64,000 nt of DNA from Thermodesulfobacteriota bacterium (lineage in GTDB: Bacteria > Desulfobacterota > Desulfobacteria > Desulfobacterales > JAUWMJ01). Position numbers and translations under genes: made by a program. The stretch is taken from contig JAXHVO010000006.1 of the NCBI GenBank assembly GCA_034189135.1, forward strand, positions 1,943 through 65,942, given 5' to 3'. A model generated the notes under the pieces. It saw only the letters and a program-made list of their open reading frames with translations. It had not been told where the DNA came from and did not search any database. Positions within the stretch are counted from its first letter, which is position 1; each line of letters starts with the position of its first letter. Below, one piece after another: positions 3,248-17,243 of the stretch.

Positions 3248-4144
3248 CTACATATTGGCGAAAATACCGTATTTGATGTCAACCAGACAATCACGCACCG
3301 GCTCATAATCGGCCGGGTAAGTCCAGCCGGTCACCTTGGAATCTCTGGAAACCTTTGAATCCGCCTCAATGAGCATCAGAGCCTTGGATACTTTTCTGGC
3401 GATTATCGTATCGGTTTTTACCGTTTTTGCCATTGGCCATACGGGATAAAGTCGCGTGCTGTGAGCAAAGGGAAAAGAGTCACGAATCTGATTAATGACA
3501 TAAAATTGACTCATACTGATCAGACCCTCTTCTTCCATCCTTTCAAGGGTGTCCGACCTCACGGTACCGACATCAACGGCTCCTGATTTTACCGCCATCA
3601 CGACCTTATCATGCGTGCCGCCTTCCAAAAAGGCCTTACAATCCTTCCTGGGGTCTATACCGTTTTCCATCAAAAGTCGCCAGGCCATGTGAGCACCGCC
3701 AAAGGAAGAATATTTCACACACATAAACTTTTTTCCTTTGATGTCGGATAATTTTTTAATGGAACTGTTTCTCCTGGCAAAGATAACACCGCCGAATTCA
3801 TAGGTGGCAAGGCCTTTTTTAGCATTCATCAGCGTTGCAATTGCCTTCACGCCGTACTTTTCACGCATCACCACATAAAATGCCGAGTTTGCCAGCAGGA
3901 AGTCAATTCTTCCGGTCTTTACTGCCTGGTCAATTTCTACAAACTTAAGAGGCACAACGGTAAACCTTTCTCCAACCCTTCTTGTCAGGTACTCTGCAGT
4001 GGAATTCCATTTTTCATAAGTCTTTTGAGCTCCCCGTTTGGCCAAAATTCCGATCTGATAATCTGCCTGCACCGAGGCGGAAAATGCCATTGTGATCATC
4101 ATTGCCATAGCAATAATGACTAATTTAATTTGATTTTTTTTCAT
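3248..4144 (-). CDS. PhnD/SsuA-family periplasmic substrate-binding protein
   Basis: 298 aa with an N-terminal signal peptide and a GGAGG RBS. It has PhnD-like motifs (IGILAKRGAQKT.., GRIDFLLANSAFY, GTVRSDTLERM). Confidence 0.75.
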   Translation of the reverse strand: MKKNQIKLVIIAMAMMITMAFSASVQADYQIGILAKRGAQKTYEKWNSTAEYLTRRVGERFTVVPLKFVEIDQAVKTGRIDFLLANSAFYVVMREKYGVKAIATLMNAKKGLATYEFGGVIFARRNSSIKKLSDIKGKKFMCVKYSSFGGAHMAWRLLMENGIDPRKDCKAFLEGGTHDKVVMAVKSGAVDVGTVRSDTLERMEEEGLISMSQFYVINQIRDSFPFAHSTRLYPVWPMAKTVKTDTIIARKVSKALMLIEADSKVSRDSKVTGWTYPADYEPVRDCLVDIKYGIFANM

Positions 4145-4200
4145 AATCTATCCTCCATTTTAATAGAACGGTTCAAGTTCAAAACCTCTCTGTTCATGCG

Positions 4201-5214
4201 TTATCTGCCGAGCATACCTTTTGCCAGGCTGTAATACTGAATCCCGGCTCTGCTCTTTTTGTTATGGTAAATGGCTGGCTTGCGCAATATTTGTGACTCC
4301 TTGATTTTCGTATCGTACTCTATAATGGTGTTAAAGGTTCTGCCGTCATATTTTTGTTTCAATTTAGTACGGATCAATTCTGATACGACAGCACTATCTT
4401 CGTACATGGTAAATAGTATCTTATAATCGATATCAGGATTGGTTTTTTCTTTGATCAGTTGAATGATCTTGATTATCCGGTTCACTCCGTATGTCGCCAG
4501 ATATTCACACTGGCAGGGAATGATTGCAAGGTCGGCAGCCGTCAAGGCATTTATGGTAAAAAATTCAATCGATGGTGGCGTGTCTATCAATATATAATCA
4601 AATTGATCTTTAATGGCATTCAGTTCATGCTTTAGAATGTATTCATAATTGGCTGCATTAAAGTATTTTTTGTTTAACAAAACCATATTCTTACCTGAAG
4701 GCAACAGTGAAAGATTCGGATAAGGCGTTTTGATGAGGATTTCGGCCAAATCCTTATTCTCGGAATTTAATATCTCATAAAAAGATTCCGTACTCTGGTA
4801 ACCCAGACAAACGGTTAAATTTGATTGGGCATCAAAATCGACCAGCAAAACCCTCTTGTTAAGCAGGGCCAGAGATACACCAAGGTTCAGGCAGGTGGAT
4901 GTTTTAGCCACACCTCCCTTTTGATTGGTAATAACGATGGTCTTCACCGGGGTTTGTTTTTCACTTTTTCCCTCCCCCACGCCAAAAAGCTGATTTGTCC
5001 CAGATGAAGCAAATTGAACTTCCTGTTGAACTGCCGCAGTTTCCACCGCATGTTTAGTGCAGTCTGCTTCTTGCTCAGGTTCCTGGATTGTGCCTGGCCT
5101 GAATACGGAAAAAACATAATTGCATTTGGAGCATCTGACCTTAACGCTTTGTTTTTTTATAACGCCTTCATCCAGCTTAAAACTGGATTCACAATTTTTG
5201 CATGTAACAATCAT
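4201..5214 (-). CDS. ParA/MinD-family ATPase with N-terminal MJ0042-type zinc ribbon
   Basis: 337 aa. The N-terminus is MIVTCKNCESSFKLD...VRCSKCNYVF (two CxxC pairs). A deviant Walker A follows (ITNQKGGVAKTST) in a ParA-like body (LLVDFDAQSN, ILIDTPPS). Confidence 0.85.
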   Translation of the reverse strand: MIVTCKNCESSFKLDEGVIKKQSVKVRCSKCNYVFSVFRPGTIQEPEQEADCTKHAVETAAVQQEVQFASSGTNQLFGVGEGKSEKQTPVKTIVITNQKGGVAKTSTCLNLGVSLALLNKRVLLVDFDAQSNLTVCLGYQSTESFYEILNSENKDLAEILIKTPYPNLSLLPSGKNMVLLNKKYFNAANYEYILKHELNAIKDQFDYILIDTPPSIEFFTINALTAADLAIIPCQCEYLATYGVNRIIKIIQLIKEKTNPDIDYKILFTMYEDSAVVSELIRTKLKQKYDGRTFNTIIEYDTKIKESQILRKPAIYHNKKSRAGIQYYSLAKGMLGR

Positions 5215-5320
5215 GACAACACCTTATTTGGTTTCTTCAAATTTCCCGAACTTTTATGGACCGATTTCAAGTTTCCAGCCGTAAACGGCTTTGAAAATTT
5301 AAGCGCATTTCTTGCACACC

Positions 5321-6367
5321 CTATGCCGACCTGCTCATTATCGATTCTATGGTCCCGGGCATTGTTTTCTCATTCACCACGATATCCACCGTTCCGCTTT
5401 GAATGGCATGGTGCGTCAGGTTGGGGTAAACACAACATTCGGCATCCTGAGCGACAGTGACCCCACCTTCGCTTTTAATTCTTCCAAAACCCTCTGCCCC
5501 GTCATCCCCAAGTCCGGTCAATAATAAACCGATGGCATCTTGGCGATAGATCTCGGCCGCTGAGGAAAAAAGAACATTCAAAGGACGCTGGGTACCATTA
5601 TGCCTCTTCAAACAGGCTTCTCCGTCAGAATTCAGATCCATACAAAATTTGTTTTTATTGGAGCTGATATAGCAGGTTCCGGGCTTAAGAGTCGTGCCAT
5701 CTCTGGCAACCTCCACCTTCCAGGGTACCAGCATATCGAACCTTTCCACGAAAGAAGAAATAATTTGCGGTGAGATTTCCTGCACCACCACCACCGCAGC
5801 CGGCAACTCCGGCGAAAGGCCCGAGATCAAACGAATGATCGTATTCGGTCCGGTCAGGTTTGTTCCCACTGCAAGAATATGATCCAATGAGCGGTACCCG
5901 TATAGATCGGACAATTTTTTAGCGGTATTTGATTTTTTTAGCTTTACCCTGCGCATGTTTTCAAGATTCACTGAATGTGCGATTTTGATCCGATCAATTA
6001 CATGCTGCCTTTCTCTGCCAATATCCTGGGAAATGGCACCGGATGGTTTTGGAATAAAATCCACTACGCCAAGCCGCAGGGCGTCAAATGTAATGGCCCC
6101 ATCGCTGAATAAAGAGCTTAAAACAACAATGGGTACCGGGGATTCGATCATAATATGTCTTATGGCCGTCAGCCCGTCCATCACCGGCATGTCAATATCC
6201 AAGGTAATGACATCGGGATGCAGCTTTTTTATTTTACTCAACCCCTCTTTCCCGTTTTTCGCGGTATCCAGAACTTGAATACCGTCATCCTTTTCCAGAA
6301 TATCAGTTACGGCTTTTCGCATGAACAAGGCGTCGTCCACCACCAGCACTTTTATTTTTTTTTCCAT
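5321..6367 (-). CDS. CheB-like response regulator (REC + methylesterase-like domain with substituted catalytic Ser/His)
   Basis: 348 aa. REC motifs are VLVVDDALFMR and DVITLDIDMPVMDG. The C-terminal domain is CheB-like, but the motifs read AVGTNLTGP (canonical GASTGG), VVQEISPQ (canonical QHMPP) and TGLGDDGAEG (Asp motif kept). Confidence 0.8.
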   Translation of the reverse strand: MEKKIKVLVVDDALFMRKAVTDILEKDDGIQVLDTAKNGKEGLSKIKKLHPDVITLDIDMPVMDGLTAIRHIMIESPVPIVVLSSLFSDGAITFDALRLGVVDFIPKPSGAISQDIGRERQHVIDRIKIAHSVNLENMRRVKLKKSNTAKKLSDLYGYRSLDHILAVGTNLTGPNTIIRLISGLSPELPAAVVVVQEISPQIISSFVERFDMLVPWKVEVARDGTTLKPGTCYISSNKNKFCMDLNSDGEACLKRHNGTQRPLNVLFSSAAEIYRQDAIGLLLTGLGDDGAEGFGRIKSEGGVTVAQDAECCVYPNLTHHAIQSGTVDIVVNEKTMPGTIESIMSRSA

Positions 6368-8479: not shown

Positions 8480-11254
8480 TCAGTGAATGGAATGCTCCGG
8501 TTGATGCTCTGCTTCGGCCCTAGCATCGGAAATCCAGGACGGATTATATCCCGCAATTTCTATAAGGTCAGGATTTACTATGGTATTTAACTGTTTCCCA
8601 ATGGAAAGTTCAACCAGTTCAAATATATCAAGGATAAGGGATATTCGCCCGTCTCCGATGATGGTGGCGCCGGAAAATCCACTTTTTTCCTGTAAATAAT
8701 CCACCAAGGGTTTTATCACCACTTCCGCCTGACCTTTCAGTTCATCAACGACCAGTCCGACCCTTCTTGTGCCCGTGCTAACGATAACCACAAAAATCCT
8801 GTCAGGATCGAGCGCTTTCGACACTGTGCCAAATTCTTTCGACAAACGTACAAGGGGAAGGGTGCGATCCCGGAGTCGAATGATTTCCACGCCTTCTAAA
8901 AACGAAGTTTCCGATTCGCTAATTCGGATCGTCTCTTCCACATTGGATAGGGGAATGGTATAAATCTCGGTACCCACCCGGACCAGCAAAGCCGGAATAA
9001 TGGCAAGCGTCAACGGTATTTTAATGCAAAAACGGGTTCCTTCGCCAACCACAGAGTCGATGTCGATGGTGCCGTTTAATTTTTCAATGTTTCTTTTGAC
9101 GACATCCATGCCGACCCCGCGACCGGAAGTGTTGGTTACTTTCGCCGCAGTAGAAAATCCCGGTTTCACTATAAGATCCAGCACTTCCCTGTTGGTCATT
9201 TGATTCAACTCGGCTTTCGAACAGAAATTTTTTTCTACAGCCGTGGCCTTTATTAAATCGGGGTCGATGCCCTGTCCGTCGTCGGACACTTCTATGACCA
9301 CATGATTGCTTTCATGGTATGCCTCCAGCGTCAGCCTTCCAAAATCTGGTTTACCAAGGATTTTACGCTCCTCAACAGCTTCGATCCCGTGATCAACGGA
9401 ATTGCGAATAATATGAATAAGCGGGTCGGAAATTTGTTCGATAATCATTTTATCCAGTTCAGTGTCTTCACCCTTGACTTTCAGCCGCACTTCCTTTGAG
9501 GTATTGTGAACGAGATCTCTGACCAGCCTCGGGTAACGATTAAAAAGCTGGGAAATAGGCAGCATTCTTATTTTCATCACATCTCCCTGCAGTTCGCCGG
9601 CGACTCTGCCTAAAGAGACGGTTGCTTCGCTGAGTCTGAAAGCAAGGCCGTTAATCTTTTTCACCTCGCCTTTGCTCATTCTATAGCTTTCCTTTAAATA
9701 TTGCTGTAACTCCCTTAACTCGTTGTGTAACTGTGAAAACCAGGCCCGACTCACCACCAGCTCACCCACCTGGTTCATTAAATTATCTATTTTTTTGGCA
9801 TCTACACGAATGTTGCGCTGAACTGATTTTACATGTGCCTCAGGAAAGGCTTCTTCTTTAATCAGATGTCTTTCGGTTCCTGTCCGATCGTTTTGTTGTT
9901 CCTGGGTTGCATGCAGGCCGTTTGGTAACTCATTGGCTGCAAGGTTTTCTGGCAAGTCGTAAGAGCCACTGCCGTCTGTAACGCCCTCACCGCTTGAGAA
10001 TAAGCCCTCCTCCGCTTCGCCGTTCGTGTTTTGAACAGCCATAACCGGTTTTATACCGGTTTCACTGCCGTCATGATCTGGATCGGTAATTTTGCAAGTC
10101 TCATCGCCCTGGGTAAACAGCAGCTTTTCTATTTCATTTTGAAGATTTTCTTCTGAGACATCATGTTCCGGCATCATGAAAGCATCAAAGGCTGTGCTTA
10201 GTTCATCGCGAAGTTGCCGATCTTTCCCTGTCCCTTCCGATTCATCCTTTGCGGTATGCTTGCCTGTCTCAGATATCGGTTCATCCACGGGATTCACTTC
10301 CGGTTTTTCTTCCAAAGAGTCTTTTATATTAGAAGCGTCGATCCCATTATGGTTTAAGTCTAATAAATCTGTTTCCCTAAGTTGAGGAAAAAACCCCAGC
10401 ACCTTTTTAACATTTTCCTCCATAAATCCAATTAACACCTCATTGCCTGAAGCCAATTCCTCTAATGCCTGGGCAATACACTTACGCCAGTCATCATAAA
10501 ACGCTACCAGGTTTTCATACCCCATGTAGTTTGCAGATGATTGAAGGCTTTCGACGCAGTCCGAACAGTTGTTCAACATCTCAGTCTTGTTTTCCGCACT
10601 ATCTACTGACCATATGCTCGATCTTAACGTAGACAGGTTCTCCTTCAGCTGCTCAATAAAGATGTCAAAAAGCTCCTTGTCATATTCTTCTTCATTTATC
10701 TCTTTGCAAACAGCCCTTAAGACAGTTTCCTTATCAGTAACGGTCTGTGTTGTCCTATCGTCTTCGTCCCCGGGCTCACGTAAAGCTTCTTCAAGGTGCT
10801 CAACGATTTCTTCAGGCTGTGCACGCTGATCTTCAACGGCGCATTCCTTTTCGGAATTCTCTTCAATATTCACATCACCGTTTGATAATTTGGTGATTTC
10901 TTCGATAAGATCGTCAATTTTTGTCTCTTCCTTTTGACTGTGCACAAGGTCATCGACCAGTGTTGACAGTCGGTCCTTAGCCTTAATGAGAATATCGATG
11001 ATTTCTTCATTGAGCTCTTTATCACCATGTCTCAGCGTTTCCAGAAGGCTCTCCAGTTTATGGGACAACGTGGAAATTTTCTCCGTACCGATAAATTCTG
11101 CAGCGCCCTTTATGGTATGCATCGATCTGAAAATATCGTTTAAAATTTCACTGTTCTCGGGGTCTGTCTCCAGTTTCAACAGACTGGCTTCGAGTTCTTC
11201 AAGATGTTCCCCCGCCTCGGTTATAAAATCTTGAAGTAAGGATAAATCAATCAT
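8480..11254 (-). CDS. cheA: Chemotaxis histidine kinase CheA
   Basis: HPt motif SMHTIKGAAEF and dimerisation segment IRVDAKKIDNLMNQVGELVV. HATPase boxes are IIRNSVDHGIE, VSDDGQGID and SGRGVGMDVV, followed by a C-terminal CheW-like domain. I moved the start to the ATG at 11254, which is preceded by AAGGAGAA. The ORF-track start at 11338 adds 28 aa without an RBS. Confidence 0.9.
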   Translation of the reverse strand: MIDLSLLQDFITEAGEHLEELEASLLKLETDPENSEILNDIFRSMHTIKGAAEFIGTEKISTLSHKLESLLETLRHGDKELNEEIIDILIKAKDRLSTLVDDLVHSQKEETKIDDLIEEITKLSNGDVNIEENSEKECAVEDQRAQPEEIVEHLEEALREPGDEDDRTTQTVTDKETVLRAVCKEINEEEYDKELFDIFIEQLKENLSTLRSSIWSVDSAENKTEMLNNCSDCVESLQSSANYMGYENLVAFYDDWRKCIAQALEELASGNEVLIGFMEENVKKVLGFFPQLRETDLLDLNHNGIDASNIKDSLEEKPEVNPVDEPISETGKHTAKDESEGTGKDRQLRDELSTAFDAFMMPEHDVSEENLQNEIEKLLFTQGDETCKITDPDHDGSETGIKPVMAVQNTNGEAEEGLFSSGEGVTDGSGSYDLPENLAANELPNGLHATQEQQNDRTGTERHLIKEEAFPEAHVKSVQRNIRVDAKKIDNLMNQVGELVVSRAWFSQLHNELRELQQYLKESYRMSKGEVKKINGLAFRLSEATVSLGRVAGELQGDVMKIRMLPISQLFNRYPRLVRDLVHNTSKEVRLKVKGEDTELDKMIIEQISDPLIHIIRNSVDHGIEAVEERKILGKPDFGRLTLEAYHESNHVVIEVSDDGQGIDPDLIKATAVEKNFCSKAELNQMTNREVLDLIVKPGFSTAAKVTNTSGRGVGMDVVKRNIEKLNGTIDIDSVVGEGTRFCIKIPLTLAIIPALLVRVGTEIYTIPLSNVEETIRISESETSFLEGVEIIRLRDRTLPLVRLSKEFGTVSKALDPDRIFVVIVSTGTRRVGLVVDELKGQAEVVIKPLVDYLQEKSGFSGATIIGDGRISLILDIFELVELSIGKQLNTIVNPDLIEIAGYNPSWISDARAEAEHQPEHSIH

Positions 11255-15827: not shown

Positions 15828-16273
15828 AACGTATTCTTTCTACTAGCAATTTGGCTTGATCTACATTGCATAAAATATATATCGTCCAATTGGTTAAAAA
15901 ACTTAAATTTTTTTTATCTATTTTGCTTTTTCGACGGATGTTTCAGTAATCCACAAAACTGCCTTTAATTGTCAGCCATAAGTAAACCCACCGGCAAATT
16001 GCTTTCCTCAGTCAAGATATTGACGCCAAATCGCTTGCACATGCGACAGCACCGCCTTATAAATATCCCGGTTAAAACAGCACTATTTACCTGAAACCAT
16101 AAGGAATATGCCATATCGGTCCAACCGAACTTAAGTGATTTGTCCCTAAGGTTTTTCTATTCCCAGTAAATTATCAGCAATAACTATGCCACAGAAGTTT
16201 TTCCTCTGGAAAAGGAATAGTTATGCCGGTAAATGGATGTAATAAAATGAAGTTATAAAAACAGGGAGAGGAA

Positions 16274-16911
16274 AACGGGATGCCCTGGACCAATAAAAAA
16301 GGGACACCGCTTTCTTGCTTCGGTATCCCTTATCTTTTAAAATGGCGTCCCCAAGGGGATTTGAACCCCTGTCGTCCCGCTTGCAAAGCGGGATGTCCTG
16401 GACCAATAAAAAAGGGACACCGCTTTCTTGCTTCGGTATCCCTTATCTTTTAATGTGGCGTCCCCAAGGGGATTTGAACCCCTGTCGTCCCGCTTGCAAA
16501 GCGGGATGCCCTGGATCAATAAAAAAGGGACACCGCTTTCTTGCTTCGATATCCCTTATCTTTTAATGTGGCGTCCCCAAGGGGATTTGAACCCCTGTCG
16601 TCCCGCCTGCAAAGCGGGATGCCCTGGACCAATTAAAAAGGGACACCGGATTCTTGCTCCAAGGTATCCCTTATCTTTTAATATGGCGTCCCCAAGGGGA
16701 TTTGAACCCCTGTCGCCCCGCCTGCAAAGCGGGATGTCCTGGACCAATTAAAAAGGGACACCGGATTCTCGCTCCAAGGTATCCCTTATCTTTTATTGTG
16801 GCGTCCCCAAGGGGATTTGAACCCCTGTCGTCCCGCTTGCAAAGCGGGATGTCCTGGACCAATAAAAAAGGGACGCCGGATTCTCGCTTCGGTATCCCTT
16901 ATCTTTTAAAA
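16274..16911. repeat. Tandem array of 5 full units (starts 16343, 16456, 16569, 16684, 16799; periods 113/113/115/115/113 bp) plus a truncated distal unit (16274-16342). Each unit is a tRNA-like 76-nt segment plus a terminator-like hairpin.
   Basis: Read directly. The minus strand of each unit is GTCCCTTTTTTATTGGTCCAGGACATCCCGCTTTGCAAGCGGGACGACAGGGGTTCAAATCCCCTTGGGGACGCCA, followed by a 37-39-nt spacer. The spacer contains the hairpin GGGATACCG-(11 nt)-CGGTGTCCC followed by a T-tract. There are two spacer subtypes (..caataaaaaaggg.. and ..caattaaaaaggg..). Confidence 0.9.
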
Positions 16912-16989
16912 TGGCGTCCCCAAGGGGATTTGAACCCCTGTCGCCGGCGTGAAAGGCCGGTGTCCTGGACCAGGCTAGACGATGGGGAC
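16912..16989 (-). tRNA. tRNA-Glu (anticodon UUC), CCA encoded
   Basis: Minus strand GTCCCCATCGTCTAGCCTGGTCCAGGACACCGGCCTTTCACGCCGGCGACAGGGGTTCAAATCCCCTTGGGGACGCCA. It folds manually into a cloverleaf with a 7-bp acceptor, anticodon stem CCGGC/GCCGG, loop CTTTCAC and T-loop TTCAAAT. Confidence 0.9.
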
Positions 16990-17046
16990 GGATGCCATCT
17001 TTGCGTCCCCTACCCCAAACTACGTGATCTTTAATAGCCCTTTATT

Positions 17047-17102
17047 CCTGTCGTCCCGCTTGCATAAGCGGGATGTCCTGGACCAGGCTAGACGATGGGG
17101 AC
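17047..17102 (-). pseudogene. 5' fragment of a Glu-type tRNA carrying the array-type anticodon arm; the T-arm and 3' acceptor strand are missing
   Basis: Minus strand GTCCCCATCGTCTAGCCTGGTCCAGGACATCCCGCTTATGCAAGCGGGACGACAGG, then unrelated sequence. It starts 3 nt after the CCA of tRNA-Lys. Confidence 0.75.
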
Positions 17103-17105
17103 GCA

Positions 17106-17181
17106 TGGTGGGCCGTGCGCGGCTCGAACGCGCGACTCTCTGCTTAAAAGGCAGATACTCTACCAACTGAGTTAACGGCCC
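17106..17181 (-). tRNA. tRNA-Lys (anticodon UUU), CCA encoded
   Basis: Minus strand GGGCCGTTAACTCAGTTGGTAGAGTATCTGCCTTTTAAGCAGAGAGTCGCGCGTTCGAGCCGCGCACGGCCCACCA. Acceptor is GGGCCGT/ACGGCCC, the anticodon stem is TCTGC/GCAGA and the loop is CTTTTAA. Confidence 0.9.
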
Positions 17182-17243
17182 GATGAAAAACTGTTTATTT
17201 AACCATATATTTTGTTGTTGTCAACAAAAAGTATCGAAATTTT

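Follow-up and report, generated by a model that had tools for sequence, protein, structure and literature searches.

The closest described counterpart of the locus reported here is the tyrT-tyrV operon of Escherichia coli. At this locus in strain MG1655, a 178-bp sequence is repeated 3.1 times directly after tyrV, each repeat ending in AATCCTTCCCCCACCACCA, the last 19 nt of tRNA-Tyr, and the repeats overlap the annotated small RNA RttR. They are co-transcribed, rely on Rho-dependent termination and, by cleavage at their pseudo-3' ends, give rise to a stable RNA whose function is unclear. Here we describe an array of partial tRNA-Glu copies on the minus strand of a 64,000-nucleotide stretch of a Thermodesulfobacteriota contig (JAXHVO010000006.1; this whole stretch is called the window). 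As in E. coli, tandem direct repeats stand right after the last tRNA gene of an operon and each ends in the 3' segment of that gene with its CCA. In contrast to E. coli, the tRNA-derived part is much longer (positions ~17-76), a dedicated hairpin, which we call X, takes the place of the anticodon arm, every unit has its own intrinsic terminator, 5'-type copies also occur upstream, and the arrangement forms an order-wide family with variable copy number. Homology to the RtT RNA (RF00391) was absent from the window even at E≤1.

Other known arrangements share some of these features. tRNA pseudogenes that arise by tandem duplication and decay are, like the units here, partial, non-functional, located beside their parent, homogenised and decayed at the distal end, but decay does not predict what we see at this locus, namely one specific replacement of the anticodon arm, perfectly paired, in all lineages. 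The 3' external transcribed spacer 3'ETS-leuZ of E. coli acts as an RNA, and its trailer and terminator hairpin right after a tRNA CCA have the same anatomy as the spacer of our units; yet our spacers have no conserved single-stranded 'seed' and cannot be aligned across lineages. Literature searches for a prior description of such arrays gave nothing relevant.

The array in the window is real: behind a functional tRNA-Glu(UUC) stand 5.5 cassettes in tandem, each made up of a trailer, a terminator and a truncated tRNA-Glu copy. Tandem Repeats Finder detected a single array at 16272-16972 (period 113, 6.2 copies, 93% matches), which is the only sizeable tandem repeat within the 64 kb. Parsing at the CCA ends, by which we set the unit boundaries, gave full units of 113, 115, 115, 113 and 113 bp in order from tRNA-Glu (16911-16343; Table 1). 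Both analyses bear out an earlier description of the window made from its letters and reading frames (the sequence-only reading), which had reported five near-identical units of 113-115 bp and a truncated sixth.

Table 1. Features of the tRNA-Lys/tRNA-Glu operon and its array, in order of transcription (window positions).
Feature	Position	Strand	Remarks
Probable operon promoter	17197..17224	-	TTGACA, 17 nt, TAAATA-like; read from sequence
tRNA-Lys(UUU), intact	17106..17181	-	ARAGORN; Rfam tRNA 68.5 bits
5'-type pseudo-tRNA-Glu, 113 nt	16990..17102	-	sequence comparison with the real gene
Functional tRNA-Glu(UUC)	16912..16989	-	ARAGORN; Rfam tRNA 61.9 bits; cloverleaf fold -33 kcal/mol
Unit 1, 113 bp	16799..16911	-	terminator 16864-16898 (weakest, -13.7 kcal/mol); X hairpin 16831-16849
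Unit 2, 115 bp, long-spacer subtype	16684..16798	-	terminator 16750-16785; X hairpin 16716-16734
Unit 3, 115 bp	16569..16683	-	terminator 16635-16670; X hairpin 16601-16619
Unit 4, 113 bp	16456..16568	-	terminator 16521-16555; X hairpin 16488-16506
Unit 5, 113 bp	16343..16455	-	terminator 16408-16442; X hairpin 16375-16393
Truncated unit 6	16270..16342	-	trailer, terminator 16295-16329, then TGGTCCAGGGCATCCCGTTTTCC; breaks off within the X hairpin

Read from the preceding CCA end, each unit begins with an AU-rich trailer, continues with a terminator hairpin and its U-tract, and closes with a copy of the 3' ~63 nt of tRNA-Glu. This tRNA-derived part comprises TGGTCCAGGACA, which corresponds to the D-loop and the 3' strand of the D-stem, followed by the X hairpin, CGAC, the T arm, the 3' strand of the acceptor stem and CCA; the units in the window retain tRNA-Glu positions ~17-76. 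Over the 31 nt of T arm and acceptor 3' strand, none of the five full units departs from tRNA-Glu, with six matches in the window where shuffled sequences lead one to expect none. The identity of the T arm had been recognized from the sequence, as had the location of TTC at positions 54-56 of a 76-nt segment, and this segment is indeed exact in units 1 and 5 (16799-16874 and 16343-16418), whereas the other three units differ from it by two to three A/G exchanges. All differences among the tRNA-derived parts of the five units are of this kind when read on the tRNA-sense strand (GGACA/GGGCA, CAA/CAG, GGGA/GGGG and TGGTCC/TGATCC). The first of them, A24>G (GGGCA), also arises independently in related loci (L005 and L010/L018; loci outside the window are referred to by L numbers).

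Two short-read assemblies of the same organism end at the array, as might be expected if an assembler had expanded a single module to 5.5 copies. We nevertheless consider such an artefact very improbable. The units differ from each other by unit-specific A/G changes and by three spacer variants (two had been reported), and one of the two assemblies reproduces the truncated terminal unit and its junction; in an independent sample this junction is preceded by a full unit end. Further, similar multi-copy arrays are found in unrelated metagenome-assembled genomes (MAGs), with five units of 125 bp in L007, at least four units in L003 and at least two in L025. The drift between units had earlier been taken to speak for real sequence.

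Although the units resemble tRNAs, the array does not represent a new type of tRNA. In ARAGORN, the five units appear as 'tRNA-Ala(tgc)' of 67-71 nt with a shortened D region, and the Rfam tRNA model (RF00005) scores them at 31, 31, 29.4, 26.5 and 25.8 bits, against a gathering score of 29 and against 62-69 bits for the four real tRNAs of the window; with both programs, which the sequence-only reading had proposed as checks, the units are marginal. At E≤1 and at gathering thresholds, Rfam searches of the window returned no matches other than to tRNA. The five units have the T arm and the 3' CCA of a functional tRNA. Of the D arm, only a D-loop remnant and the 3' strand of the stem are left, the 5' strand being replaced by a U-tract, as noted before. 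In place of a 7-bp acceptor stem, GTCCC from the terminator can form 5-6 bp in the window and in its nearest relative, L025, in agreement with the 5-6 of 7 pairs originally counted, but the match of this segment to the real acceptor 5' strand covers just 5 nt, is not significant in comparison to shuffled sequences, and has no counterpart in other lineages, which have no conserved 5' strand that could close a cloverleaf. The supposed anticodon stem of 5 bp with an open 7-nt loop does not hold up either: in folding, the loop UUUGCAA closes by two more pairs to give an 8-bp stem with a 3-nt loop. The Ala-type UGC anticodon falls with it, since relatives have UCC, UUC, AUC or GAC at this place, or loops of 4-8 nt.

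With no D arm, no anticodon loop and, in relatives, no acceptor 5' strand, the units cannot decode, and we rejected real tRNA-Ala genes as an explanation because of the missing D arm, the zipped-up loop and the non-conserved 'anticodon'. The idea that the 3' strand of the terminator is a diverged acceptor 5' strand, and hence that whole tRNAs were remodelled, was dropped as unproven, as alignments judged against shuffled sequences support homology only from the D arm on. Peptide coding was also rejected, the periods of 113 and 115 bp not being multiples of three; open reading frames on the plus strand across the array are repeat artefacts.

The spacers are intrinsic (Rho-independent) terminators, each with a GC-rich hairpin directly followed by a U-tract. 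Their stems of 9-11 bp enclose an 11-nt loop, precede 5-6 U and fold at -13.7 (behind the real tRNA-Glu), -18.3 and -17.9 kcal/mol, with z-scores between -2.4 and -5.3. A consensus terminator scanner misses them because a loop of 11 nt is above its limit. In related lineages, too, each spacer is an intrinsic terminator hairpin, and the sequences of these hairpins are mutually unrelated. Because each unit is preceded by such a terminator, its transcription would depend on read-through. A scan for internal sigma-70 or sigma-54 promoters of the units found none, nor was anything conserved, and a pseudo-promoter formed by T-loop and trailer was judged by eye and set aside as not conserved. The sequence-only reading had pointed out that the terminator and the cloverleaf-like fold exclude each other, which is true in silico for the window and L025 but not for the other lineages. 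This exclusivity is probably incidental: the terminator would be done folding when transcription is still ~70 nt short of the competing 3' strand, and therefore would not work as a co-transcriptional switch.

To find further members, we conducted two scans. The first took a single genome for each species and looked for an X stem beside a Glu-type T arm; it yielded seven loci, all from Desulfobacterales MAGs and six of them at the tRNA-Lys/tRNA-Glu operon. The second scan, of metagenomes, was agnostic of the arm and asked for the 3' end of tRNA-Glu, 72-100 nt, and then the start of a Glu T arm. It yielded 17 loci, of which three are plain tandem tRNA-Glu genes and 14 contain fragment units, 13 of these with the X hairpin. 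X is therefore truly shared between the loci and was not produced by the pattern of the first search. The 5' limit of tRNA homology differs between loci, being the 5' strand of the D-stem in L026 and L006, while L003, L004, L019 and one unit of L024 retain only AGGACA of the D arm; the common core therefore consists of tRNA positions 21-76, with X substituting for the anticodon arm. These comparisons show the cassette of the window to be a local form of a labile module that many sulfate-reducing Desulfobacterales have beside tRNA-Glu.

The upstream pseudo-copy at 16990-17102 is the one substantial feature that had been overlooked in a description otherwise accurate in nearly every detail. It lies within the operon transcript between tRNA-Lys and tRNA-Glu. 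Its acceptor 5' strand and D arm are those of the real tRNA-Glu, its X hairpin (TCCCGC-TTATGCAA-GCGGGA, 17054-17073) has an 8-nt loop, and its 3' part consists of a decayed or expanded T-arm region followed by an acceptor-like 3' strand, GGGGACGCAA. Copies of this 5' type also occur in L004, which has two of them upstream and two units downstream, and in L005, L006, L021, L026, L027, L033 and L034. The other tRNA genes of the window (Lys-CUU, Ala-GGC and Lys-UUU) have no partial copies. In L009 (~870-1075), tRNA-Glu is present at GCGTCCCC-TTGGGGACGCCA without its interior, the two acceptor strands being fused, followed by a terminator and a full unit; a hipA-like toxin gene ends ~120 nt before it. 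HipA acts on glutamyl-tRNA synthetase, and the juxtaposition may be a coincidence.

The lability of the module is most apparent among close relatives. TrkH of the window is 90% identical to that of 'bacterium 4572_123' and 80% to that of Eth-SRB1, which places the window in an uncultured Desulfobacteraceae lineage near these two. Following trkH synteny, we found tRNA-Glu with nothing but its terminator in L035 and L037, only a truncated remnant in Eth-SRB1 (L030), an upstream pseudo-copy plus a downstream unit, decayed and with its hairpin broken, in 4572_123 (L033), two upstream copies in L034, one unit each in L014 and L022, three units with three unrelated spacers in L024, and the spacer type of the window followed by decayed units in L025. 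L014, which shares the distal terminator with L035, exceeds it by exactly one module with a CCA end on either side. Where decayed copies occur, as in L004, L024 and L025, they are the distal ones. The Eth-SRB1 remnant is orthologous to the sixth unit in the window and has its breakpoint (CATCCCGCTTTCC|) in common with it, which points to an old truncated unit and a later expansion that produced the five full ones. Further, the T arm of the units tracks the host tRNA-Glu in every genome, including the AGCGG/CCGCT stem of L003, with its swapped base pair, and an A/G variant of the T-loop, TTCGAAT versus TTCAAAT. Since T arm and acceptor always match the resident gene, gene conversion is indicated. 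Lability and homogenisation of this kind are the traces that direct repeats bear after unequal crossing-over and gene conversion.

On the minus strand, the operon follows trkA and trkH, and a cheB-MCP-cheW-cheA cluster begins on the same strand 440 nt beyond the truncated sixth unit. The TTGACA of the operon promoter recurs at the equivalent place in L014, L022, L024, L030 and L033, and the promoter scores under the threshold of a consensus scanner. The reading we favour, with middling confidence, is that the array is a recombination product, an amplified cassette of pseudo-tRNA and terminator, whose effects are only local, as serial terminators ahead of the che operon. The suggestion of amplified tRNA pseudogenes made from the sequence is essentially right. 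Copy number would shift by unequal homologous recombination or slippage between direct repeats of 32-113 bp, with whole modules gained or lost exactly between CCA ends, and gene conversion would hold T arm and acceptor identical to the resident tRNA-Glu. The X hairpin would be kept paired by template switching at a quasi-palindrome or by selection on its structure. The five near-identical units would represent a recent, lineage-specific amplification in front of an older truncated unit. The weakest step of this scheme is that the units would have no tRNA-like activity in trans and any effect would be exerted in cis, where six serial terminators and structured pseudo-3' ends may close a very strong tRNA operon before the co-directional che operon.

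A number of observations, most of them on the X hairpin, weigh against this reading. In the window, X has the form UCCCGC-UU/UGC/AA-GCGGGA. The five basal pairs (UCCCG/CGGGA) are invariant across 28 distinct X arms, whereas pairs 6-8 vary with compensation (C-G, A-U or U-A at one pair; U-A, A-U, C-G or U.G at the next) and the loop of 3-8 nt has no conserved base (centres UGC, UCC, UUC, AUC and GAC in 30+ loci). In an alignment of 20 distinct cores, 98.4% of the X cells are paired and double changes occur at four pairs; covariation scores 0.208, compared to 0.072 in shuffled alignments, none of 500 of which reaches the observed value. The wobbles, including the two in unit 2 (a loop-proximal and a basal A>G), are all U.G on the tRNA-sense strand, nine cells from at least six events, with no C.A. 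Such a bias to the sense strand looks like the signature expected of a transcribed and selected RNA hairpin. GGRCA on the 5' side of X and CGAC on its 3' side are invariant. Since all units of all lineages have the UCCCG/CGGGA base rather than the real anticodon arm, they would have a single old origin and have persisted for long, which is odd for dispensable DNA open to deletion by homologous recombination. Every old, diverged module also retains a good terminator. Further, the benefit of a 'terminator stack' in cis is conjecture. Recombination with local effects does not account for the order-wide persistence and perfect pairing of X, and a functional RNA is possible.

The impression of a selected RNA hairpin is tempered by two findings, the first of which comes from comparisons of orthologous modules. 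Over pairs of such modules, X differs at 12 of 95 positions and the spacer at 36 of 318, with the changes in X always compensated. Between L010 and L018, 3 of 66 spacer positions and 5 of 18 hairpin positions are different, and the pairing is still perfect; both arms of X therefore change together and fast. In the clade of L007/L015, L008, L017 and L023, an inverted copy of the real anticodon arm is joined at the near-palindrome GTCCNGGAC, a footprint of strand switching during replication at the locus. Template switching in quasi-palindromes, an established mutational process, copies one arm onto the other and so produces perfect extended hairpins and apparent covariation without selection. 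The pairing of X is kept either by this process or by selection on the structure.

In L007, L015, L008, L017 and L023, the units contain a reverse complement of the D-stem 3' strand and anticodon arm of the real tRNA-Glu (GCCGGCGTGAAAGGCC..GTCC), located 27-30 nt on the 5' side of X, which could pair with the real tRNA-Glu over ~27 nt in a read-through transcript. CsrA-type GGA sites were rejected, since several units have GGGCA.

In a rival explanation, the units would be functional, non-decoding mimics of tRNA-Glu that act in trans as a decoy or sponge for a factor recognizing T arm and acceptor, such as a processing enzyme or a toxin. The RNA would combine X with the T arm and an acceptor 3' strand ending in CCA and be released by read-through of leaky terminators or by processing; in the lineage of the window it could close as a cloverleaf without a D arm, and the array would raise its dose. 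Maintenance of X by compensatory changes with wobbles on the sense strand only, the invariant GGRCA and CGAC and the constant match of T arm and acceptor to the host tRNA-Glu are all in line with this, as is a conserved core that begins at tRNA position 21 in at least four independently eroded lineages. In addition, the 76-nt unit folds in the proposed cloverleaf-like form at -29.6 kcal/mol, and the terminator behind the real tRNA-Glu is the weakest of the set. On the other hand, the module is absent, truncated or decayed in the close relatives L035, L037, L030 and L033, and L008, L018 and L023 have only units without the acceptor 3' strand and CCA. Neither a promoter nor a 5' acceptor strand is conserved, a terminator precedes every unit, the sequence of X turns over as fast as the spacer, and Rfam gives only weak tRNA matches. 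We regard a mimic acting in trans as unlikely. The broader proposal that the X-hairpin unit (positions 21-76) constitutes an undescribed, order-wide family of functional non-coding RNAs derived from tRNA-Glu is in our view doubtful, and we are similarly hesitant about its specific form, in which a non-chargeable mimic of acceptor and T arm would be a decoy for an enzyme, toxin or recombinase and amplification would serve dosage.

The units might instead be products or targets of site-specific recombination at tRNA-Glu, either leftover attachment-site (att) duplications of integrated elements that have lost their cargo or spare decoy attB sites by which the real gene and its terminator would escape integration. 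As in the att repeats left by integrases, a tRNA 3' part is repeated downstream of an intact gene with identity up to the CCA end, and in relatives elements with serine recombinases integrate at this tRNA. L027 (887-2473) and L028 (2488-4080) contain intact genes for large serine recombinases of 528-530 aa with a zinc-ribbon domain (PF13408). These genes converge on tRNA-Glu (UUC and CUC) and run antisense across its acceptor and T arm, their stop codon lying in the anticodon loop; both contigs end inside the presumed element. In L019 and L021, partial copies of the same gene directly follow a unit and not the real tRNA-Glu, so units can serve as landing sites in place of the real 3' end. In this clade, tRNA-Glu is an integration hotspot. 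A link of the units to site-specific recombination would also agree with the isolated 12-18-nt tRNA-Glu 3' ends beside units of L009, L013 and L023, with the mosaics of spacer modules, decayed ones distal, in the close relatives L024 and L025, and with one L003 unit whose hybrid T stem (AGGGG...CCGCT) is such as a crossover in the T-loop would give.

Several differences from att repeats make this origin or role rather more improbable than a mimic. In none of 30+ loci does cargo or an integrase lie between the real tRNA-Glu and a unit; the spacer between the gene and the unit repeats is always ~45-60 nt, just a terminator, and the period is only 113-125 bp. Moreover, the region on the 5' side of the identity block is itself tRNA-like and contains a conserved hairpin, hybrids between real and X arms are absent, and this model does not account for the 5'-type upstream copies. 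In the window, no repeats bound an inserted element and no integrase is adjacent: as claimed from the sequence, there is no integrase or cargo nearby (none within ±5 kb, the neighbours being the housekeeping genes trkA/trkH and cheB/MCP/cheW/cheA), and tblastn found no serine recombinase in the 64 kb. To our knowledge, serine recombinases do not duplicate their targets. Because of this, and because the sequence at the recombinase junctions is unrelated to any spacer, the landing of recombinases does not explain how units form. A search for a phage or provirus attP carrying the unit was negative, with no match in IMG/VR and only genuine phage tRNAs in INPHARED; the IMG/VR relatives of the serine recombinase have only ~22% identity to it.

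Whichever process keeps X paired, the units have practical consequences: in Desulfobacterales genomes they will be miscalled as 'tRNA-Ala(UGC)', which raises tRNA counts, and at this locus the array interrupts short-read assemblies. They show how partial copies, kept homogeneous and gained or lost through recombination, can surround a single essential tRNA gene, and they provide a second, independent example of the long-known, unexplained tyrT-type arrangement, with many natural variants. If X is selected at the RNA level, it would define a new tRNA-derived RNA family in syntrophic sulfate reducers (relatives of SEEP-SRB1/Eth-SRB1). If template switching keeps it paired, it would be a clean natural case of covariation without selection, and a caution for the discovery of RNA structures.

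Among other repeat systems that we considered, type III antitoxin repeats, CRISPR-like arrays and hairpin elements of the IS200/REP type were set aside: no toxin or cas gene is adjacent, copies of the hairpin are not scattered through the window, and the hairpins within a unit do not resemble one another. In L010 (~360-680), an IS200-like transposase gene begins directly after a unit, and in L004 a fragment resembling a Y1 transposase by eye, though not confirmed by Pfam, is found ~1.2 kb past the array. The region downstream of the unit in L017 (~10650-11215, tRNA-sense) contains a DUF4276 gene and several open reading frames without family matches, and looks like a variable, possibly defence-related island beside the tRNA locus. 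A miniature inverted-repeat element of ~190 bp, with the ends GAGACCTTTGCAAAA...TTTTTCAAAGGTCTC, is present in L030 (~5310-5525) and L035 (~4070-4270) and as a remnant in L033; in L035 it sits within the terminator after tRNA-Glu.

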